DNA of 64,000 bases, from the NCBI GenBank assembly GCA_030649135.1, contig JAUSGI010000005.1:1-64000 (forward strand). The letters run 5' to 3'. Shown here piece after piece: positions 3,113 through 49,601 of the stretch (positions are counted from its first letter, which is position 1; each line of letters begins with the position of its first letter). Under the pieces are notes generated by a model, which ran no database searches, was not told the DNA's origin, and was given only the letters and a program-made list of their open reading frames with translations. The position numbers were made by a program, and so were the translations under genes. Source of the stretch: a bacterium. GTDB taxonomy: Bacteria; Patescibacteriota; Minisyncoccia; Phycocordibacterales; Zambryskibacteraceae.

Positions 3113-3640
3113 TTAATCTTCCGGGGTTGAAGTCGCGCTTCTTTCTCCTCCGAGGGCTCGTATTGCCTTCGTGAGGCTCCTGTGAGCTTCGCGGATGTGG
3201 CCCTTGGCCTCGCTAGCGATATCGCGGACTCTTTCGAAGTTCTCTTTGGCTTTGTCTCCGGAAAGGTCCACGGAGGCGAAGAGGGCTATGCTTGCTTTGG
3301 TTAAGGAGAGGTGGTTTCTGGCCTCCACCACGTAAGCGGTAGAAGTGGCGGTAACGCCACCATCGGCCTTAACCTTCTCAATCCTGGATTCGAGGCGGAC
3401 AATTATCCTCTCGAGACGCTCAACTGTCGCCGTAAGTACTCTTGACGTATTGGCGGCCTTTCTCTTAGCCAGGCCTCTCTGCATTTCTGCGCGAGCGTCA
3501 GTGCTTGAGGCTTTTCTGGTCTGGGCTTCAACTTTACGAGTTTCAGTCTGGGTTCTAACATTGGGCTCTTTGGCCAGAGCGGGGGAAGCGAGCGAAACAA
3601 TGGAAAACATCAGTATCAGTGGAATGATTTTGCGATTCAT
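3113..3640 (-). CDS. hypothetical secreted coiled-coil protein
   Basis: 175 aa; N-terminal signal peptide (MNRKIIPLILMFSIVSLASPALA) followed by Ala/Arg/Glu-rich helical sequence. Confidence 0.5.
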   Translation of the reverse strand: MNRKIIPLILMFSIVSLASPALAKEPNVRTQTETRKVEAQTRKASSTDARAEMQRGLAKRKAANTSRVLTATVERLERIIVRLESRIEKVKADGGVTATSTAYVVEARNHLSLTKASIALFASVDLSGDKAKENFERVRDIASEAKGHIREAHRSLTKAIRALGGERSATSTPED

Positions 3641-4268: not shown

Positions 4269-5408
<1,140 letters not shown>

Positions 5409-5482
5409 GATGTGAATTGTTACGAATTAAACCGTATTAACGAGAGAGGTTCGCCTCGCGGCGAACCTCTCCGAATAACCTA

Positions 5483-5511
5483 TTACTCTCCTAGTATAAC
5501 AAATCCCTAAA
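5483..5511 (-). promoter_or_regulatory. candidate sigma70-type promoter for nusA (TTGCAA, 17 nt spacer, TATACT), followed by a leader hairpin at 5442-5472
   Basis: Read on the minus strand: TTGCAAaaaatttagggatttgtTATACT. The 5' UTR contains a perfect 12-bp stem (GAGAGGTTCGCC gcga GGCGAACCTCTC) about 30 nt upstream of the nusA ATG. Confidence 0.5.
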
Positions 5512-5564
5512 TTTTTTGCAAGCCTTCCTGTCAGAAATCTCCGGTACTGAAGAACTCTGACAGG

Positions 5565-5589
5565 AAGCCGACGTTGCATCGGCTTTTTG
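5565..5589 (+). terminator. plus-strand intrinsic-terminator-like hairpin (AAGCCGA cgttgca TCGGCTT TTTTGA)
   Basis: 7-bp GC-containing stem followed by a T5 run on the plus strand; no plus-strand gene ends here (see findings). Confidence 0.35.
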
Positions 5590-5692
5590 AGGATGGTGAT
5601 TCTCGGGAGTTGGAAGGTCTCCCACCCCTTCTGTTGCCAGGCCGTCCTCACGGCCCCGGTGACCCACGTGATAATCAGCGTATTGCTGCCGG

Positions 5693-6013
5693 CTAGGATG
5701 CCAGCGCAATCTCACTAATCTCAAGCCCCAGAAGATCCGAGAGGTAGGTGTCAACCTCCTCCGGCATCCTCTCCGGCTTGACCACGAGGATCAGGCTGGG
5801 CACCATACCCCTTTCCGGGATAGGAGCCTGCGCCATCACCCACTCGACCTTGGAATCCGACATGCGGTTTTCCACCGCAGCCAGACGCCCAAAGCAAGTG
5901 GTGCAGGCGCACCCCAACCACATCACCTCGAACGCGACGAGATTGCTCTCGACGCGACCGAAGCGAGGGTTGGACCAGCCGTCCACCCGCAGGCGAACGG
6001 TTCGGTTGGCCAT
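5693..6013 (-). CDS. hypothetical small protein with WLGCACTTC (CxCxxC) motif
   Basis: 106 aa from the ATG preceded by GGAGGTGaaatc. GC-rich codon usage, distinct from flanking genes. Possibly a thioredoxin-like or Fe-S-like small protein; not assignable. Confidence 0.45.
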   Translation of the reverse strand: MANRTVRLRVDGWSNPRFGRVESNLVAFEVMWLGCACTTCFGRLAAVENRMSDSKVEWVMAQAPIPERGMVPSLILVVKPERMPEEVDTYLSDLLGLEISEIALAS

Positions 6014-6262
6014 GATTTCACCTCCTTTCATGGCGAGTTATTCACCCGGATACCAACTGATAGCGCCTTCTCGCTAATCAGTCAGAAATCCAAGGCTACA
6101 TTAACGGCTAGGTCGCCCCAATCTTAAAAGAACAGCTGTTTCGCCCTTTTGGGCACATCAGTCGGGATACGCATCCCGAGACAGCAGGGACTAGTTGATA
6201 GTCCCTATGGCGGTTTCATCCGCCCCTCCTTATCCCCAACCTCCCCTGTGCGGGTGAGGATG

Positions 6263-6574
6263 TTACGGGGTCGAATCACCTTTCCCGGCATACTTACTCC
6301 GGTACTCAGCGATGAGCGCGTCCGCCTCCTCAGTCGAGGAGACGACCTGCCGGAGGCTAACCCTCCGGTTGAGCGTGCCGAACCGGCACGCCACGCGCGG
6401 ATTGGCAGCTTCGCCAATCCGAAGGACGAGCAGGTACCCGTCCTTCGTCTTGCGCAAGGAATGAGACATCTCCTCGTCGCAAAACTGGCGCACGACTACG
6501 CCGTCCGCGCTGGGAGCGGAATTGCACCCAGCGAAGAGCACGACCAGACAAAGAACAGCGGCAAACTTGATCAT
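6263..6574 (-). CDS. hypothetical lipoprotein
   Basis: 103 aa; signal peptide with lipobox (VVLFAGC); AGGAGaataagac ATG start; GC-rich. Confidence 0.5.
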   Translation of the reverse strand: MIKFAAVLCLVVLFAGCNSAPSADGVVVRQFCDEEMSHSLRKTKDGYLLVLRIGEAANPRVACRFGTLNRRVSLRQVVSSTEEADALIAEYRSKYAGKGDSTP

Positions 6575-6610
6575 GTCTTATTCTCCTGCGGCCTCGCCGC
6601 TTTCGAACAT

Positions 6611-6660
6611 TAAAGAACTTGAGCGAACCATTTCGCTCTTCTGAAAATCCAATTCCATTA
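6611..6660 (-). promoter_or_regulatory. copy 1 of a duplicated ~50-nt hairpin element located immediately 5' of the lipoprotein gene
   Basis: AAAGAACTTGAGCGAAccATTTCGCTCTTCTGAAaa... shares about 85 percent identity with 6985-7040. Forms a GAGCGAA/TTCGCTC stem extended by AGAA/TTCT. Confidence 0.5.
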
Positions 6661-6676
6661 GATTTTCGGAACAGCG

Positions 6677-6706
6677 GGCGAAGCATTGCACTTCGCCGGG
6701 TTTTTT
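6677..6706 (+). terminator. plus-strand intrinsic-terminator-like hairpin (GGCGAAG cattgca CTTCGCC GGG TTTTTT)
   Basis: Stem-loop followed by T6 on the plus strand, inside the GC-rich block. Confidence 0.35.
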
Positions 6707-6792
6707 AACGTGGTTCACTCCACGGAGCTGTGGTCTCGCCTCGGGATTATGATTTGCCCGAGATCCCCACTCATGTTTGCTCAGGCACCTTC

Positions 6793-6960
6793 GACTTACT
6801 TTCCAAAGCGATACAGCAGCTTTAGGAAGTAAGGAAAGGCCGCGAAGGACTGCGCACCTTTGAAGGCGAGGTTGCATCGCTTGCATACCATCACAAGCTG
6901 CCCGTCATCCGGGTCCTCGACCCCCTCAAGGAGTTTGTCCTTACACTCCGGACAGTCCGT
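6793..6960 (-). CDS. hypothetical 55-aa zinc-ribbon protein (CPEC...CKRC)
   Basis: MTDCPECKDKLLEGVEDPDDGQLVMVCKRCNLAF...; two CxxC pairs; preceded by GGAGGTGGTAAGAG. Below the 60-aa ORF-track cutoff; translated manually. Confidence 0.4.
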
Positions 6961-6984
6961 CATCTCTTACCACCTCCTTCTTCC

Positions 6985-7040
6985 AAAGAACTTGAGCGAA
7001 TTATTTCGCTCTTCTGAAGAACCAAATTTCAATTTTTAGT
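6985..7040 (-). promoter_or_regulatory. copy 2 of the duplicated ~50-nt hairpin element located immediately 5' of the zinc-ribbon gene
   Basis: CAAAGAACTTGAGCGAAttATTTCGCTCTTCTGAAgaaccAAATTTCAATT; same architecture as 6611-6660. Confidence 0.5.
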
Positions 7041-7498
7041 TCCTCGGAAGAGGGGGCTAGAGAAGTTCTCTCGCCCCGGCGTAGTCTGGAGTCCCGGTTT
7101 CCCTATGCCGGGTTATCTCCAGTTAAGGACCCACGCAAGGTCCCGCGCCACAGTCGAGGCTTCCCTCGAACGTCTGTGACGACTCGCCGCAACAACCATT
7201 GCGGCAGCAGGGGCTGAGATCATCAGCCAACCGCCTGCACGGCCGGTGGACTCTGGCGCGTTTTGGGGTACGCACCGCTCCACCATGGGAAGAACAAAAC
7301 CCTGTTTCATCCTTTCGGAATCATCAGCCCGGATACACATCCGGATACAGGAACCAGGGTTTAGCATTCCTGGTAGCGGCTCTGCTTCCGCGCGGCTCAC
7401 CACTCTAAGTAGGTGACACTTCTCTGTTTGTTATCGCGGGACAGAGAGCCGCGTATGCATTTTCTGTTCCCAGGACTGCGATAACACCCCGGCTAACC

Positions 7499-7669
7499 CT
7501 AAGTTAGCAGTACCCGGAGGGAGAAGATTACTTCCTTCTCCTCCAACGATCGGTCCGTCCTCCAGAAGGGAAAGAAATCGCTCGAAGCGACTCCCTCCTC
7601 TCGGATTTCGGACGACCGTCGGGGCTGTAGCCAGCCCGGGCGAGAATCATAGTGGCTTGCACCACCAGA
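7499..7669 (-). CDS. possible small basic ORF (56 aa, GTG start after GGAGGTGagtgagt)
   Basis: VEKGKKNLVVQATMILARAGYSPDGRPKSERRESLRA...; first ORF downstream of the minus-strand promoter at 7733-7761; weak evidence. Confidence 0.2.
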   Translation of the reverse strand, partial: SGGASHYDSRPGWLQPRRSSEIREEGVASSDFFPFWRTDRSLEEKEVIFSLRVLLT

Positions 7670-7732
7670 TTCTTCTTACCTTTTTCCACTCACTCACCTC
7701 CTTTCAGGGAACCTTGTCAGCGTCCGATTACA

Positions 7733-7761
7733 ATCTTACTCCATGTGATATTTATTGTCAA
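7733..7761 (-). promoter_or_regulatory. candidate sigma70 promoter reading into the GC-rich block (TTGACA, 17 nt spacer, TAAGAT)
   Basis: Minus-strand read TTGACAataaatatcacatggagTAAGAT within the AT-rich 7700-7950 hub. Confidence 0.45.
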
Positions 7762-7906
7762 CTCATTTTGACACTTTACTACAACTGGTCGTAAAAATAT
7801 GGCTAAATAAGACCATAGTTTGAAATATGAGTTTAATTTGGTCTGACTAAACTAGTATTTAAAGGGTTGATATTTTTGACCAATAATGGTGTTTAGTCAT
7901 TTACGT

Positions 7907-12445: not shown

Positions 12446-13971
12446 GTTTCTCCAAGGTTTATAGTGCACAAACAAATCTTCTTTCTGTTATCCCTATTTC
12501 CGTCGAGACGGATATTTCTCGCGGTCTAAATGCTTTCGCAATAGTCGGCCTGCCGGACAAAGCCGTAGAAGAAGCGCGGGACCGTGTCTCAGCCGCTATC
12601 AAAAACTCTGGGTTTGATTCCCCGAAAGCTAAAAATCATAAAATAGTTATCTCACTTGCGCCTGCGGACCAGAAGAAAGAAGGCCCGTCCTACGATGTTG
12701 CCATCGCTCTGTCATACCTTACGGCCAATAAAGACATCGCCTTCGACCACGAGGGTAAATTATTTTTAGGGGAGCTATCGCTCGACGGAAAAGTGCGGGC
12801 GGTACACGGCATCCTGCCTATTGCCCAATTTGCCAAACAAAATGGTTTCAAAGAACTTTATGTACCCATGGAAAATGTTCGCGAAGCGGCTCTTATTGAC
12901 GGTGTAAGTATCTTTGGCATCTTGTCCCTTGCGGGGCTCATAGAACATCTTTCCGGTACTGCCAAAATTCCAAAAGCGATATTGACCGTAGTCGATAAAA
13001 GAAAATCGGTTTCGAATATAGACTTCTCCGACATCAGGGGTCAAGAAAGGGCCAAGCGTGGACTCTTGATTGCGGCGGCAGGCGGACATAATGCCGCCAT
13101 GTACGGACCGCCCGGTACCGGCAAAACCATGCTTGCTAAAGCTTTTGCCGGCATCTTGCCGGAACTCACTTTCGAAGAGGCACTCGAAGCGACCGGCATC
13201 CACTCCGTAGCAGGCACGCTCTCCGAAACTTTTATTGCTCACCCTCCTTTCCGAGCACCACACCATACCGCTTCGTACGTTTCATTAGTCGGTGGCGGAG
13301 CCACGCCTAGGCCGGGAGAAATCACTTTGGCTCACCGCGGAGTCCTTTTCATGGATGAATTCCCGGAGTTTGACAGGAGAGTGATAGAAAGTTTACGCCA
13401 ACCGCTTGAAGATAAAGTGATATCCGTTTCCCGCGCCAAAGGCACGGCGCACTTCCCGGCGAATGTGTTATTGATAGCCGCCATGAATCCATGCCCTTGC
13501 GGGAACTTCGGCTTCCGAGGCAAGCCCTGCATTTGCACACCTTCCACGCTTTCGAGGTATCGAAGGAAAATGTCGGGACCAATCATGGACCGCATAGACA
13601 TCTGGCTTGAAGTGGATAGAGTCCTGCCAAGCGAACTCTCCGGCGACTCGGAAGGGGAAGTAAGTGAGAGTCTTCGAAGTAAAGTGGAGAAGGCACGAGT
13701 AGCCCAGAAAGAACGTTTCAATAAAAAAGGCAAGAAAATATCGCGCAACTCGGAAATGAACGCCAGAGACATGGTGACACTTGTCACTCTCGATAAAGAA
13801 TCGCGCAGGACGCTTGACCTCGCCGCAGAGCGTTTAGGTTTTTCCCCACGCGTTTATCACCGAATGATAAAAGTGGCGCGCACCGTTGCCGACCTTGAGG
13901 GCAGCGAAGAAATTAACAACTCGCACATCCTAGAGGCAGTCGAATACCGCCCTAAAAAGTTTGATGTTTAG
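12424..13971 (+). CDS. comM: YifB/ComM family Mg-chelatase-like AAA+ ATPase
   Basis: 515 aa; N-terminal Lon-like/ChlI domain, Walker A (GPPGTGKTMLAKAF), Walker B (LFMDEFPEF). Confidence 0.9.
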   Translation: MPQTYGMSFSKVYSAQTNLLSVIPISVETDISRGLNAFAIVGLPDKAVEEARDRVSAAIKNSGFDSPKAKNHKIVISLAPADQKKEGPSYDVAIALSYLTANKDIAFDHEGKLFLGELSLDGKVRAVHGILPIAQFAKQNGFKELYVPMENVREAALIDGVSIFGILSLAGLIEHLSGTAKIPKAILTVVDKRKSVSNIDFSDIRGQERAKRGLLIAAAGGHNAAMYGPPGTGKTMLAKAFAGILPELTFEEALEATGIHSVAGTLSETFIAHPPFRAPHHTASYVSLVGGGATPRPGEITLAHRGVLFMDEFPEFDRRVIESLRQPLEDKVISVSRAKGTAHFPANVLLIAAMNPCPCGNFGFRGKPCICTPSTLSRYRRKMSGPIMDRIDIWLEVDRVLPSELSGDSEGEVSESLRSKVEKARVAQKERFNKKGKKISRNSEMNARDMVTLVTLDKESRRTLDLAAERLGFSPRVYHRMIKVARTVADLEGSEEINNSHILEAVEYRPKKFDV

Positions 13972-30183: not shown

Positions 30184-31406
30184 TGAAAAAAATTTTAATC
30201 ATCTTAGTAGCAATTATCGCAATCACTCTAGCCGTTTTCTTTGGGTGGTATTTGTTCTTCCAAAATTCCGATATGCCCGTAGGAGAGGTGGTTAGAAATG
30301 TTTTGCCATTCGGTTCCGGTGGAGATACTTCCTTACCAGTGAACCTGCCGGGTGGAAACGAGCAATTGCCTAATGGACAACAACTGCCGGCAGACGAGTT
30401 TGCCAGACCAAATGCCAAACTCTTCCGCATTGCCGATACCCCCATAGCCGGTGCGGTAGTATTTAAAAGAGGAAACCAAACGGTCGTACGCTACGTTGAC
30501 CGCGCCACAGGACATATCTATGATGCCGATTTGGCAACGCTCGAGAAGGTAAAGGTGTCCAACAACACCCTGCCCAAAATTTACGAGGCCTATTTCAGAA
30601 CAGACGGCAACGCAGTACTTCTCCGGTCTCTCAAGGACAACTCCGATGTGGTAGAAAATTTATCTCTCACCCTTACTCCTCCCCAATCATCGAGCACCCT
30701 ATACGCCATCTCATCTACAGCCCTACGCGGTAACATTGGAGCTGTCGCTGTGGGTTCCGGCAACACCCTCGTATACACTCTGCGAGACACCGCTACCGTG
30801 GTTGCTTCGGCCTTCAATGGCACCGGGGCCAGAATCCTACTTACCTCACCCTTCACAGACTGGCGACTGGCATCGGCCGGAAACAGTTTAGTGCTATACA
30901 CGAAAGCAAGTGTTAATGCGCCAGGTTATGCCTACGCCCTAAACACGTCCGGCGGGGCATTAAAAAAAGTTATTGGACCGCTCAACGGATTGGTAGCTCT
31001 GCCCGATAGTTCCGGCAATCGAGTACTGTATTCATATGTCGAGAATAACAAGACAAAATTGGTGACTAAGAATCTTACCAATAATATCGTTTCCGAAATA
31101 TCCCCCGTCACATTGGCTGAAAAATGTCTTTGGAGTATAAGAAACGCAGGCATCCTTTTCTGTGCCGCGCCCACTGACAACTTGGGACCTGACGAACCTG
31201 ATAGTTGGTACAGGGGAGTAACGCACTTCTCCGACCGTATTTGGCTCTTTGACACCAAAAGCGGAGTGTCCCAAGTCTTGGTAGAACCAAAGCAGAGCCT
31301 CGATACGGAGCTTGACGCGGTAGACCTAAAACTTTCCCCCAGCGAAGACTATCTCGTTTTCACAAATAGAACCGACCTCTCACTTTGGGCACTTAGACTT
31401 GAGTAG
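30183..31406 (+). CDS. hypothetical membrane-anchored protein, beta-rich (last gene of the cluster)
   Basis: 407 aa; N-terminal TM helix; Ser/Thr/Gly-rich beta-propeller-like body. Confidence 0.5.
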   Translation: MKKILIILVAIIAITLAVFFGWYLFFQNSDMPVGEVVRNVLPFGSGGDTSLPVNLPGGNEQLPNGQQLPADEFARPNAKLFRIADTPIAGAVVFKRGNQTVVRYVDRATGHIYDADLATLEKVKVSNNTLPKIYEAYFRTDGNAVLLRSLKDNSDVVENLSLTLTPPQSSSTLYAISSTALRGNIGAVAVGSGNTLVYTLRDTATVVASAFNGTGARILLTSPFTDWRLASAGNSLVLYTKASVNAPGYAYALNTSGGALKKVIGPLNGLVALPDSSGNRVLYSYVENNKTKLVTKNLTNNIVSEISPVTLAEKCLWSIRNAGILFCAAPTDNLGPDEPDSWYRGVTHFSDRIWLFDTKSGVSQVLVEPKQSLDTELDAVDLKLSPSEDYLVFTNRTDLSLWALRLE

Positions 31407-32109
31407 CCCTGATGTTTTTCTTGATAAAAAGTTCCTGCCCAATACTGAACAGGTTGGTGGTAAGCCAGTAGAGAGCAATAACTCCGGAAATTTTGTAGGA
31501 AATAAAAAAAACTATCACCGGAAAGAAATATTTCATTTGAGTCTGCATGCTACGGGTAAGATTGTTGCCAAATGAATCTCCTTTTGGCTGAACCTGTCCC
31601 TGCATAGAAAGTTTGAACTGGAAAAAGGTAGAGACGGCGGCCAAAAAAGCGATCACGGCACTTTTGGCCGTGATGTCCAAAAAGCCAAGAAAGGTGGTGC
31701 TAATATGGCTCGGCTCGGTCACGAATGAATATAAAAGGGCGGAGTTAACTTCCGGAAAGTGCAGGAAAATTTGATACAAAGCGAAGATAACGGGAATTTG
31801 GATAATAATGACCAATATGCCCGAGAATGGGTTAACCCCTTTTTCTCTGTATAGAGCGAGGGTGAGTTTCGCTTGCTCCTCGGCCTTATCTTTATATTGC
31901 TCTTTAATCTTGGCTAAAGCGGGAGCTATTTCTGTCATCTTTGCTTGCGCAAGTACTGCCTTTCTGGAAAGAGGGAAGGTTGCCAAGCGAACTAGAATAG
32001 TGAGGATAATAACCATCACCCCGGCATCGGCCCAGGGCAACACCTTAAACAAAAACATTAAAATATTGTAGAGCGGGTCGAAAAAAAACGTGTGATAGAG
32101 AAAAGACAT
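31393..32109 (-). CDS. yidC: membrane protein insertase YidC (short form)
   Basis: 238 aa; conserved TM2 region (ILTILVRLATFPL) and C-terminal TMs of the YidC/Oxa1 family. Confidence 0.88.
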   Translation of the reverse strand: MSFLYHTFFFDPLYNILMFLFKVLPWADAGVMVIILTILVRLATFPLSRKAVLAQAKMTEIAPALAKIKEQYKDKAEEQAKLTLALYREKGVNPFSGILVIIIQIPVIFALYQIFLHFPEVNSALLYSFVTEPSHISTTFLGFLDITAKSAVIAFLAAVSTFFQFKLSMQGQVQPKGDSFGNNLTRSMQTQMKYFFPVIVFFISYKISGVIALYWLTTNLFSIGQELFIKKNIRATQV

Positions 32110-32118
32110 CGGTTAATT

Positions 32119-32364
32119 TTATCCTTTTTTAAAGAGCTCGGCTAGTTCAGCTTCAAGAGCACGGCCTTTTATTTTTTCAGCCCCAGGTTTGGCAACAATA
32201 AAATATGTAGCGGGTTTTAGATTAGAAATAAATGTGCGTGCAATCGGGCGGACGCGCCGGCGAATTCTATTTCTTATAACGGCCTTTTTGGAAACCTTTT
32301 TAGAAACAGAGATTACTACTTTCACCGCATGGAAAGATTTAATCATTAAATAAAAGTGGTTCAT
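32119..32364 (-). CDS. rnpA: ribonuclease P protein component
   Basis: 81 aa; basic RNR-type motif (VIRNRIRRRVR); translationally coupled (TAATG) to rpmH upstream. Confidence 0.75.
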   Translation of the reverse strand: MNHFYLMIKSFHAVKVVISVSKKVSKKAVIRNRIRRRVRPIARTFISNLKPATYFIVAKPGAEKIKGRALEAELAELFKKG

Positions 32365-47253: not shown

Positions 47254-49601
47254 AAAAAGAACAAAAACGCATTGTACTTTTTGATGCCCACGCCATTATT
47301 CATCGCGCTTATCATGCCTTGCCGGAGTTTGCGACATCAAAGGGTGAACCAACCGGCGCTCTCTACGGTCTCTCCGCAATGCTTTTAAAAATTATCGGCG
47401 AACTCAAACCAAACTTTTTAGTGGCGTGTTTCGATTTGCCTGGGCCCACTTACCGCCACGAGGCCTACGAAGCTTACAAATCCGGCCGCGCCAAGACAGA
47501 CGACAACTTGGTATTACAGCTTGAGCGCGCCAAAGATGTTTTTACCGCTTTCGGTATTCCCATTTATTCTCAGCCCGGTTTCGAGGCAGACGATATCATC
47601 GGCACCATTGTCGGCAGTTTAAAAAAAGATAAAAATATCGAAATCATCATTGCCACCGGTGATATGGATGCGCTTCAGCTCGTAGATGATAAAAAAGTTC
47701 AGGTATATACCCTTAAAAAGGGCATTAACGACACTATTTTATACGACGAGAAAAAAGTGATGGCACGCTTCGGTTTTCCACCGAAACTTCTGGTGGATTA
47801 CAAAGGTTTACGCGGAGACCCTTCGGATAATATCATCGGAGTCAAAGGTATTGGAGAAAAAACTGCGACCTCTCTCATCACCACATTTGGTACTGTAGAA
47901 GATATTTATAAAGTGCTCAAGCAGAAAGATGATACGTATAAAAAGGCCGGCATCAGCGAGCGCGTTAGAGATTTACTTCTTCTAAATGAGGAAGAAGCGC
48001 TCTTTTCAAAAACATTGGCGACTATCCGCACCGATGCGCCCATTCATTTTATTTTACCCCCGGAGTGGAGACAAAATCTGGAACTCGATAAATTACTCGA
48101 CCTCTTTGGCGTACTTGAATTCAGAACCATGGGGGAGAGGGCAAAAAAATTGGTGGGGGGAGCTTCCGTAACGGAGACTGGAGTTGCCCCCACTCTGTTT
48201 TCGCCCGAGACCAAAGAACTTTGTTTGGCGCTCTGGGTCATAGATTCCAATCTCGCCAATCCGACGCTCGAGGAAGTTTTCCGGTTCACTAAGACGGATA
48301 GCATTAAAGAAGCCAAAAAAGTGATCGAAGTCGAGCTCGATAAGCGAAAGGTTAGAAAGGTTTTTGAGGAGATTGAGAAACCCATCATGAGAGTGGTGGA
48401 AGAGATGAACGAGAGGGGCGTTAAGATTGATAAAAAAATTTTGAAAGACCTTTCCTCGAAATATCATCAAGAACTTTCGCGTCTCGAGAAAGTTATCTGG
48501 AAAGAAGCCGGAAAAGAATTTAATATCAACTCACCTAAAGTGCTCTCCGATATTCTTTTTAATAAACTTCAGTTGGCTGATAAGCGCCAGAAGAAGACCC
48601 CGACGGGAGCTCTTTCAACCAAGGAGTCAGAATTGGAAAAACTGCGAGACAAACATCCCATTATCGCTCTGATTCTGGAATACCGTGAACTTGCCAAACT
48701 GCTCTCGACTTACATCGACGCCATACCACCTCTTTTGGATAAAAACTCCCGTCTGCACTCCACTTTTCTCCAAGCCGGCACCACTACCGGTCGCATGGCA
48801 TCCAACAACCCCAATCTGCAAAATATTCCCAACAAAACTCTTCTGGGCCGAGCTATCCGCCACGCCTTCGTGGCGGAAGGTGGGTTCAAACTGGTCTCCC
48901 TCGACTATTCGCAAATCGAATTGCGCATCGCCGCCATTCTTTCGGGGGACAAGAAACTAATTGAGATATTTAAAAATGGAGAGGATGCGCATGCCGGCGT
49001 GGCGATGCGTGTGTTTAAAGTGCCGAAAGAGGCGGTGGACAAAAGCATGCGCACCAGAGCCAAGACCATTAACTTCGGCATCCTTTACGGCATGGGAGTC
49101 AATGCTCTTAAAGCCAACCTGGGTGTGGAACGTAAAGAGGCCGAAGAGTTTTACAATAAATATTTTGAAACATTTTCCGGACTCGCCGCGTATTTGGATA
49201 AAATAAAAGCCGAAGCCAAGCGGAAGGGATACACGGAAACTCTTTTTGGCAGAAGGCGATATTTCGCGGGGCTAAGTTCGCCCTTGCCCTATGTGCGGGC
49301 GGGAGCCGAAAGGATGGCCATCAATGCGCCCATCCAAGGCACCCAGGCGGACCTGATTAAAATTGCCATGAAAAGAATTGATGAACATATCCGGTCCGAG
49401 GAGCATGAGGATGATATACGCTTAATTCTCCAAGTACACGACGAATTGGTTTACGAGGTAAAAAGTTCTTTGGTCAACGAAGTTGTTAAACACTTTAAAC
49501 AACTAATGGAGACAGTTTTACCTAAAGAGAAAACTTCCGGCGTTCCCATTACTGTCGAAGCCGAGATGGGTGAGAATTGGGGGGAAATGCAACGGATATG
49601 A
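47250..49601 (+). CDS. polA: DNA polymerase I
   Basis: 783 aa; 5'-3' exonuclease domain, polymerase motifs A/B/C (DYSQIELR, RRxxKxxxFGxxYG, VHDE). Reduced 3'-5' exonuclease region given its length. Confidence 0.92.
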   Translation: MKKEQKRIVLFDAHAIIHRAYHALPEFATSKGEPTGALYGLSAMLLKIIGELKPNFLVACFDLPGPTYRHEAYEAYKSGRAKTDDNLVLQLERAKDVFTAFGIPIYSQPGFEADDIIGTIVGSLKKDKNIEIIIATGDMDALQLVDDKKVQVYTLKKGINDTILYDEKKVMARFGFPPKLLVDYKGLRGDPSDNIIGVKGIGEKTATSLITTFGTVEDIYKVLKQKDDTYKKAGISERVRDLLLLNEEEALFSKTLATIRTDAPIHFILPPEWRQNLELDKLLDLFGVLEFRTMGERAKKLVGGASVTETGVAPTLFSPETKELCLALWVIDSNLANPTLEEVFRFTKTDSIKEAKKVIEVELDKRKVRKVFEEIEKPIMRVVEEMNERGVKIDKKILKDLSSKYHQELSRLEKVIWKEAGKEFNINSPKVLSDILFNKLQLADKRQKKTPTGALSTKESELEKLRDKHPIIALILEYRELAKLLSTYIDAIPPLLDKNSRLHSTFLQAGTTTGRMASNNPNLQNIPNKTLLGRAIRHAFVAEGGFKLVSLDYSQIELRIAAILSGDKKLIEIFKNGEDAHAGVAMRVFKVPKEAVDKSMRTRAKTINFGILYGMGVNALKANLGVERKEAEEFYNKYFETFSGLAAYLDKIKAEAKRKGYTETLFGRRRYFAGLSSPLPYVRAGAERMAINAPIQGTQADLIKIAMKRIDEHIRSEEHEDDIRLILQVHDELVYEVKSSLVNEVVKHFKQLMETVLPKEKTSGVPITVEAEMGENWGEMQRI

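Follow-up and report, generated by a model that had tools for sequence, protein, structure and literature searches.

In rrn operons the boxA of the spacer comes after the RNase III helix of the 16S rRNA, and the early mRNAs of phage T7 as well as rrn transcripts are processed at intercistronic hairpins. Both the leader and the 16S-23S spacer of rrn operons carry nut-like sites with the order boxB-boxA, in which boxB is dispensable (PMC8632103), and the published boxA consensus, which comes from gamma-proteobacteria, is GYTCTTTAANA (PMC5725501). Nus complexes that depend on boxA protect long non-coding CRISPR transcripts from Rho (PMC7665894), and Nus complexes also chaperone RNA folding (PMC8632103). 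For hammerheads clustered around single genes, it has been proposed that they cut a long transcript into gene-length mRNAs (PMC3088659).

We analysed a stretch of 64,000 nucleotides (contig JAUSGI010000005.1), which we call the window, in which a duplicated hairpin had been predicted just 5' of two adjacent small genes. The duplicated hairpin is one part of a ~100-nt transcribed module that consists of three hairpins and a boxA-like UGUUCUUU motif. Its components resemble known things, namely boxA, boxB-like hairpins and clustered hammerheads; what appears new is the module as a composite, its placement before every cistron and its interchange with hammerheads. We found no description of the module in the literature searched, and a comparison of positions 5300-7900 with Rfam 15 (E up to 5) assigned it to no family, returning only the hammerhead and two chance-level matches.

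The duplicated module and its island

Both copies lie in a GC-richer stretch of ~2.2 kb (5530-7770), the island, which is neighboured by a TrmB-like regulator and a XerC-like recombinase on one side and by nusA on the other. A promoter at 7761-7733 on the minus strand is directed into the stretch; this promoter, like those of the relatives described below, is a consensus match only. The features, all on the minus strand, are the following.

7733..7761, minus strand: sigma-70-like promoter of the island, TTGACA-17-TAAGAT (consensus scan)
7706..7712, minus strand: degenerate, promoter-proximal core GUUCCCU, followed by the Shine-Dalgarno sequence and GTG of the 53-aa ORF (sequence read)
7528..7689, minus strand: 53-aa ORF with a strong Shine-Dalgarno sequence, no Pfam family matched
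7299..7353, minus strand: hammerhead type III motif B, with core CUGAUGA, a GUA cleavage site and a U.U mispair at 10.1/11.1 (cmscan, motif scan)
7289..7295, minus strand: core variant GUUCUUC, 4 nt past hammerhead B
7053..7077, minus strand: hairpin P1 of copy w2 (GGGGCGAGAGAA-C-UUCUCUAGCCCC; fold)
7007..7054, minus strand: long hairpin P2 of copy w2 (covariance model R1, 61 bits; covariation)
6994..7011, minus strand: hairpin P3 of copy w2, the hairpin originally predicted, overlapping the 3' base of P2
6985..6991, minus strand: boxA-like core GUUCUUU of copy w2
6796..6963, minus strand: 55-aa zinc-ribbon ORF, an ORFan
6677..6697, minus strand: hairpin P1 of copy w1 (GGCGAAG-N7-CUUCGCC)
6634..6676, minus strand: long hairpin P2 of copy w1 (covariance model R1, 70.4 bits)
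6621..6638, minus strand: hairpin P3 of copy w1, the hairpin originally predicted
6612..6618, minus strand: boxA-like core GUUCUUU of copy w1, then AAU
6263..6574, minus strand: 103-aa lipoprotein-like ORF with lipobox LFAGC (by eye), an ORFan
6133..6187, minus strand: hammerhead type III motif A, with a GUC cleavage site and core CUGAUGU (A9 to U; cmscan, own scan)
6127..6133, minus strand: boxA-like core GUUCUUU(UAAG) directly past hammerhead A, the exact point at which L010 homology starts
5693..6126, minus strand: conserved structured 5' UTR and 106-aa locus-anchoring protein (Parcubacteria-wide)

The predicted duplication was borne out by a repeat search of the window, in which 6612-6652 and 6985-7025 were 90% identical over 41 nt, by gapped blastn, which gave a longer alignment (6612-6697 versus 6985-7075, 76% identity over ~90 nt), and by a 32-nt pattern with exactly 2 sites in the window, where 0.00 were expected from 100 shuffles. 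The covariance model, run with filters off, likewise recovered the two copies and no third one in the 64-kb window. The repeat unit had been put at about 50 nt; the actual unit is about twice as long. As an independent Logan assembly (L001) reproduced 7483-5344 at 100% identity, the duplication is not an assembly artefact. The repeat ends 37 nt before the ATG at 6574 of the lipoprotein-like ORF and 21 nt before the ATG at 6963 of the zinc-ribbon ORF, roughly in line with the predicted 25-35 nt, and both ORFs have good Shine-Dalgarno sequences.

Only self-matches were obtained for the lipoprotein-like ORF (among 5.8 billion clusters) and for the zinc-ribbon ORF (among 1.84 billion representatives). 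Since two ORFans made a gene-based search for context impossible, we used the conserved neighbour to find relatives. This protein of 106 aa (6013-5693), encoded by the final gene of the stretch, has conserved counterparts in Parcubacteria, Giovannonibacteria and Paceibacterota; its AlphaFold2 model is confident (pLDDT 91.8), and a Foldseek search gave no PDB match better than E = 0.15 and hence no functional lead. The relatives share the order TrmB, near-perfect TTGACA/TATAAT promoter, an ORF-poor region of 1.2-2 kb and a 105-aa gene, with TTGACA-17-TATAAT at the position equivalent to that of the window promoter.

In the sense of the mRNA, the module reads P1, P2, P3 and U-GUUCUUU-(N)-AA, and the Shine-Dalgarno sequence and start codon come after another 10-30 nt. 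P1 is a GC-rich hairpin of variable sequence that abuts P2 on its 5' side. P2 (CGCUCUUCC...GGAAGAGCG), a hairpin of 17-20 bp with apical parts that vary from AT-rich to GC-rich, is the best conserved structure in an alignment of eight copies, with 97.1% of cells paired. Compensatory changes affect 12 of its 17 pairs (also by RNAalifold), a covariation that was reached by 0 of 500 shuffles, with slid controls at 37-59%, and that is based on 8-12 copies from six genomes, some of them paralogues. The covariance model scored 61-70 bits on the sense strand versus 20-27 bits on the antisense strand, and this gap, together with the G.U pairs, argues for a sense-strand RNA rather than a DNA palindrome.

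P3, which reads GAGCGAA-N4-UUCGCUC on the minus (mRNA) strand of both copies (6638-6621 and 7011-6994), is a hairpin of 6-7 bp with 93% of its cells paired and compensatory changes in 3 of 7 pairs. It is also kept in L010, L023, L067 (Kaiserbacteria) and L072 (Saccharibacteria), while copies of the Giovannonibacteria type (L006, L011, L017, L026) keep P2 and the core and lack the 3' arm of P3. The segment GAGCG serves both as the 5' arm of P3 and as the 3' base of P2, so the two helices are mutually exclusive, and in constrained folds their states lay at most 3.2 kcal/mol apart in 12 of 12 modules. The shared arm covaries with both of its partners: where the shared G has become A (L010 E3, L067 b and L067 c), both partners have changed from CGCUC to CGCUU. 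The P1-P2-P3 layout, with the same overlap, recurs in a second family of sequences, type B (CCACCAAAGUUUUCAA...UUGAAAGUUUUGGUGGG, then GGGAUAG/CUAUCCC). The extended hairpin of the original prediction is thus present as P3, but as one of two competing helices, of which P2 is the better conserved. The larger overlapping hairpin, the GUUCUUU after it and the two hammerhead motifs that flank the gene pair had been overlooked.

The core motif, the hammerheads and the relatives

The motif GUUCUUU follows P3 by 2-4 nt in every module and precedes the start codon by 21-37 nt in the window. It had been placed inside a stem; we found it to be single-stranded, just 3' of the hairpin, and to be the most conserved feature of all. 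On the island strand GTTCTTT occurs 4 times against 0.245 expected (P = 1.2e-4), and the remaining ten occurrences in the window lie inside coding sequence or without a module. Forty non-redundant junction sites gave the consensus U(-1) G U U C U U U N A A, in which G1 is present in 39/40 sites, C4 in 40/40, and GUUCUUU at positions 1-7 in 35-40 of the 40; a U precedes the core in 25 sites, and A is the majority base at positions 9 and 10. Wherever an ORF follows, the distance from G1 to its start codon is 17-37 nt.

The core fits the boxA consensus GYTCTTTAANA, which is gamma-proteobacterial and may not be that of the host lineage, with AA at positions 8-9 in about a quarter of the sites and, shifted by one base, at 9-10 in the other three quarters or so. 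String searches of the literature for a boxA of the GUUCUUU type returned unrelated papers only. Ordinary genes in the window do not have the core in their 5' regions, and hence it is not a general translation signal. Further GYTCTTTNAA sites in the window are no more frequent than by chance; they lie at 12856 (without a module), at 32137 (at the end of a coding sequence) and at 48609 (within the ORF 47250-49601).

The core also occurs without the three hairpins. In five relatives (L011, L013, L016, L017 and L026) it lies 17 nt past the -10 box with no preceding hairpin and reads GUUCUUUUAAG. It also follows hammerheads: in the window, motif A ends in ...GAAACAGCU and runs straight into GUUCUUUUAAG, motif B is followed by GUUCUUC, and the corresponding sequences are GAUCUUU in L014 and GCUCUUUACAAAG in L018.

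Motifs A and B lie on the same strand, 1166 nt apart, and bracket both repeats and both ORFs. In cmscan, motif A (6187-6133) scored 42.7 bits (E 1e-8) and motif B (7353-7299) 30.7 bits (E 3e-5), both below the RF00008 gathering score of 48.5. All three helices are present in each, and the cleavage triplets are GUC in A and GUA in B. The strict core criteria that we took from PMC3088659 (C3 U4 G5 A6 N7 G8 A9, G12 A13 A14, U16 H17, paired next to the core) are broken once in each motif, by A9U in A and by the U.U at 10.1/11.1 in B. With sub-threshold scores and one broken criterion each, cleavage in this genome is uncertain, and under the strict criteria of Perreault et al. both motifs would be set aside for testing (PMC3088659). 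An element found in 66 Pseudomonas phage genomes matches motif B at 91% identity and has the same helix II; the search of the phage collection matched the hammerhead only, not the module. A hammerhead of phage PaP3 with a core variation is listed as active in vitro (PMC3088659), and its variant is probably the same as that of B. In our own motif scan, canonical copies appeared in L014 (4374-4424 and 4845-4893) and L018 (6262-6312), immediately ahead of small ORFs and on the strand of the genes, whereas an Rfam scan of these two loci at gathering scores reported no hammerhead. The L014 peptides have the look of double-glycine leaders, without Pfam support.

The closest relative, L010, is 91% identical to the window over 6133-5512 and carries three copies of the element as well as a fourth that belongs to another sequence type; in other relatives a single copy directly precedes the 5' UTR of the conserved gene. 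The window and L010 are homologous from the very G of the core onwards; 5' of this G, hammerhead A stands in the window and the third module copy in L010. This breakpoint indicates that module and hammerhead are interchangeable upstream partners of the core. The content between the flanks is wholly different in the window and L010, although the flanks are 91% identical, and L003 and L006, with flanks 99.5-99.9% identical, differ by a discrete module swap.

Operons of Parcubacteria, Kaiserbacteria and Saccharibacteria have genes preceded by the same architecture, in every case on the sense strand. In the Kaiserbacteria operon L067 the core stands before 7 of 7 genes, 25-37 nt from each start. 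Some parts are near-identical across CPR classes: one P1 occurs in both L072 and L010 E2, and the type-B P2 is identical at 38 of 39 positions in L067 and L010. A DNA pattern scan of contigs was dominated by chance (90 hits against ~68 estimated by chance), with only the L067 and L072 loci real by the covariance model and the window's own genome not among the 80 loci listed; two scans of viral contigs gave no true module and no hammerhead-plus-core unit.

The copies in six genomes, all sense and all upstream of an ORF or of the conserved 5' UTR, support the predicted shared 5'-leader device on the sense strand. The alternative of a UTR module copied along with its gene comes close to the picture in the relatives. 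A proposed link to small secreted or zinc-ribbon genes does not hold, as the L067 copies precede CheY-like and other unrelated proteins.

Possible functions of the module

The reading that we favour, tentatively and from the sequence, is that the hairpin and GUUCUUUNAA may form an rrn-type nut-like site, a boxB-like hairpin and then boxA, that is renewed past each RNA processing point. NusB/NusE and other Nus factors would load at UGUUCUUUNAA onto RNA polymerase, and the resulting antitermination would keep transcription processive, with chaperoned folding, across a long, structured and sparsely translated polycistronic RNA. The transcript would be cut by hammerhead self-cleavage, or at the P2 duplex by a double-strand-specific RNase, and as such a cut would release the upstream boxA from the polymerase, a fresh boxA would be supplied past each cut, ahead of the next ribosome-binding site. 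Access to boxA may be gated by the near-isoenergetic exchange between the P2 base and P3: since the extended P3 pairs AGAA with UUCU, this switching may control the exposure of the core. We know of no precedent for a boxA before every gene of an operon. We found no rRNA genes in the window or in the related CPR loci examined, and tblastn with an E. coli NusB query gave no nusB match in the sequence examined.

Less probable, and in our view doubtful, is a role in processing and stability only, in which RNase III would cut P2, or RNase Y the single-stranded GUUCUUU, the resulting fragments would be shielded, the upstream one at its 3' end by P1 and the downstream one at its 5' end by P3, and the core would be a nuclease determinant or an S1-binding translational enhancer rather than a Nus site. 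The module takes the same position as the self-cleaving hammerheads, P2 offers a duplex of 17-20 bp, the window has an RNase Y gene (542-2071), and processing at hairpins has its parallels in T7 and rrn transcripts, all of which suit such a role. The reported binding of S1 to a boxA-type sequence (PMC8632103) would suit it as well. Against it stands the promoter-proximal core of the relatives, which lies ~10 nt into the primary transcript without a hairpin, where cutting would be of little use; moreover, the known preferences of RNase Y or RNase E are less specific than an invariable G1 and C4, and the motif is missing from the 5' regions of the window's ordinary genes.

We consider it unlikely that the module is an attenuator, in which P3 and the U-rich tail would form a weak intrinsic terminator, possibly stimulated by NusA or NusG, with the P2 base as antiterminator, so that polarity would be set gene by gene; in a variant, the hairpin and TTNTTT would be a NusG-dependent pause site that couples ribosome to polymerase. 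The Bacillus NusG pause motif is TTNTTT, which the 7-mer also contains (as TTCTTT), and a simple scan called both P3 copies terminator-like, as expected of a U-rich tail behind a hairpin. The mutually exclusive, near-isoenergetic P2 base and P3, with their three-way covariation, are likewise what an attenuator would have. Yet the 7-mer is conserved without a terminator hairpin, both after the promoter and after helix III of the hammerheads; the tail has 5 U in 8-9 nt, broken by a C, and its UUCU is itself paired in the extended P3; the copies L006, L011, L017 and L026 do without the 3' arm of P3; and C4 is invariant, whereas TTNTTT allows any base there.

Quite improbable is an element acting at the level of DNA, a recombination site or mobile repeat (attC-like or MITE-like) that would shuffle small cassettes and form its hairpins in single-stranded DNA. 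Such an element would explain why the window and L010 have wholly different content between their flanks, the module swap between L003 and L006, the ORFan status of both cassette ORFs and the near-identity of module parts across CPR classes, and a tyrosine recombinase gene lies near the locus in the window and in L014. This gene is missing from most related loci, however, and the module is not dispersed in the window, occurs in sense orientation in 100% of cases at a fixed distance to the Shine-Dalgarno sequence, and shows no target-site duplications; repeats of any function, moreover, would promote such rearrangements as a side effect. We rejected the attC reading on core sequence and architecture: GTTCTTT misfits the R' sequence GTTRRRY, there is no complementary inverse core and thus no RYYYAAC/GTTRRRY pair, and three separate hairpins take the place of one imperfect stem. 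A REP or MITE was rejected in turn, with two copies in 64 kb and every copy, within six genomes, in sense orientation and in one operon type; dispersed repeats in random orientations, which the original prediction had named as the finding that would count against it, were not seen.

An internal promoter with a palindromic operator copied before each gene, close to the repeated promoter once offered as an option, would suit the position 5' of each gene and the perfect 7-bp inverted repeat that P3 forms in DNA, but was rejected as the least credible reading because no sigma-70-like match lies inside either copy, though TTGACA/TATAAT promoters lie nearby; the P2 apical parts range from AT-rich to GC-rich, and the G.U pairs and the strand-asymmetric scores speak for RNA.

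Should the nut-like reading be true, boxA/Nus-type antitermination would be used gene by gene in protein-coding operons of CPR bacteria, beyond rRNA, suhB and CRISPR leaders, and would be coupled to RNA processing by hammerheads or hairpin modules. Clustered bacterial hammerheads, a long-standing puzzle, would gain a concrete role, in which the transcript is cut and the polymerase then re-armed, and a conserved structured RNA family outside Rfam would mark fast-evolving small-protein loci in unculturable organisms. A wider version, which we regard as a long shot, is that hypervariable operons of Patescibacteria are built from self-contained gene cassettes, each with a leader made of an RNA-cutting device and then boxA; P1-P2-P3 would be a substitute for the hammerhead, at the extreme a new class of self-cleaving or self-processing RNA, or the transferable unit by which cassettes pass from one CPR lineage to another. 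Were the Nus reading to fail, there would still be two facts to explain: a hairpin pair that is bistable and covaries three ways, and an invariant 7-mer before every gene of such operons.

Comparison with known systems

The boxA sites of rrn nut-like regions, suhB and CRISPR leaders share with the module a hairpin followed by a linear motif that fits GYUCUUUAA, and a setting in long, structured and poorly translated RNA. As in the rrn case, one copy lies past the operon promoter and internal copies follow presumed processing points. Unlike there, the module stands 10-30 nt ahead of the Shine-Dalgarno sequence of almost every cistron, and adds two conserved hairpins and the competition between P2 and P3, with the AA mostly shifted by one base and no boxC identified.

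With the clustered hammerheads of prophage-like regions (Perreault et al. 2011, PMC3088659), the window shares two type III motifs on the same strand that bracket two small genes, and the locus a nearby tyrosine recombinase and relatives with canonical copies directly before start codons. The hammerheads in the window differ in that they alternate with a non-ribozyme hairpin module, are each followed by a boxA-like core, and each deviate from the strict consensus.

The RNase III sites of phage T7 early mRNA and the REP/BIME stabilisers are, like the module, stable hairpins between the cistrons of one transcript, while the module keeps one orientation and a set distance to the next start codon, has a conserved single-stranded motif and occurs in one operon type. 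Integron attC sites, finally, are structured repeats that separate small ORFs, strain-specific and without promoters of their own, behind a single strong promoter, with a 7-nt core that begins with GTT at each junction, in all of which the module resembles them. It differs from them in its three hairpins, in a core that misfits GTTRRRY and has no inverse counterpart, and in a locus without a conserved IntI-type integrase; and whereas attC lies 3' of the cassette ORF, the module lies 5' of its ORF and is tied to the Shine-Dalgarno sequence.

Leader modules that differ between strains, with parts near-identical in different classes

Parts of the leader module (hairpins P1-P2-P3 followed by a boxA-like GUUCUUU) were found to be near-identical in different CPR classes, namely at positions 3181, 5388, and 1900 of the Kaiserbacteria locus L067 versus 45-85 of L010, the closest relative of the window locus, and at ~6600 of the Saccharibacteria locus L072 versus ~440 of L010. 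The type-B P2 of L067 matched that of L010 at 38 of 39 positions, and L072 and L010 have the P1 sequence GCGGACGAACAGAACAUCGUCYGCC in common. Such near-identity at the sequence level suggests either horizontal spread or very strong constraint.

Between strains L003 and L006, in which the 105-aa protein is identical and the flanks are 99.5-99.9% identical, a type-B module is replaced by a type-A module, and one leader hairpin carries a different apical extension. The segments that differ are:

L003 4781-4910 versus L006 4810-4910
L003 4403-4475 versus L006 4486-4504

In the window, P1 of module copy w1 (6677-6697) scores as an intrinsic terminator on the antisense (plus) strand, because it is followed there by GGGTTTTTT; on the sense strand, P1 is preceded by AAAAAACCC.

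The conserved 106-aa protein and other genes of the window

5693-6126, minus strand: 106-aa protein and its 5' UTR
5524-5567, downstream of the 106-aa gene: inverted repeat with 22-nt arms, 82% complementary, no spacer
542-2071: RNase Y gene
31393-32109: yidC, divergent neighbour of dnaA
32467-33948: dnaA, divergent neighbour of yidC

DGWSN and CxCxxC are invariant in the conserved 106-aa protein, for which Pfam has no family. Its AlphaFold2 model was confident (pLDDT 91.8), and a PDB fold search with this model returned nothing better than E = 0.15. The conserved 5' UTR of ~110 nt contains a hairpin with the loop GAGAAGGC. The inverted repeat, which just precedes a nusA promoter-like site (5521-5493), may mark the end of the operon. 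As yidC and dnaA are divergent neighbours, the region of the replication origin probably lies within the window.

Elements and small ORFs near hammerhead motifs

7427-7513, minus strand: non-coding block CCGGGGUGUUAUCGCAGUCCUGGGAACAGAAAAUGCAUACGCGG..., ~100 nt upstream of hammerhead B
L002 (Pseudomonas phage Clew-1) 1012-1068: hammerhead-like element
L014 3167-3406 and 4445-4630: paralogous small ORFs starting with LSDEEL..VVVGG

The block upstream of hammerhead B resembles segments of the related loci L018 (4567-4631 and 6173-6216) and L014 (4744-4818) at 82-98% identity, and two of these counterparts lie 27-46 nt upstream of hammerheads. An Rfam scan of the block matched no family; the block is a possible RNA element associated with hammerheads.

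In the Clew-1 element, our own motif scan found all hammerhead parts, although cmscan reported nothing at this site for E values up to 1. The first annotated early gene of the phage starts with an ATG that overlaps the 3' strand of helix III.

The paralogous L014 ORFs are adjoined by small membrane ORFs, one of which begins within hammerhead helix III. Pfam lent no support to a double-glycine leader reading of the paralogous ORFs, the start of which resembles a double-glycine bacteriocin leader.
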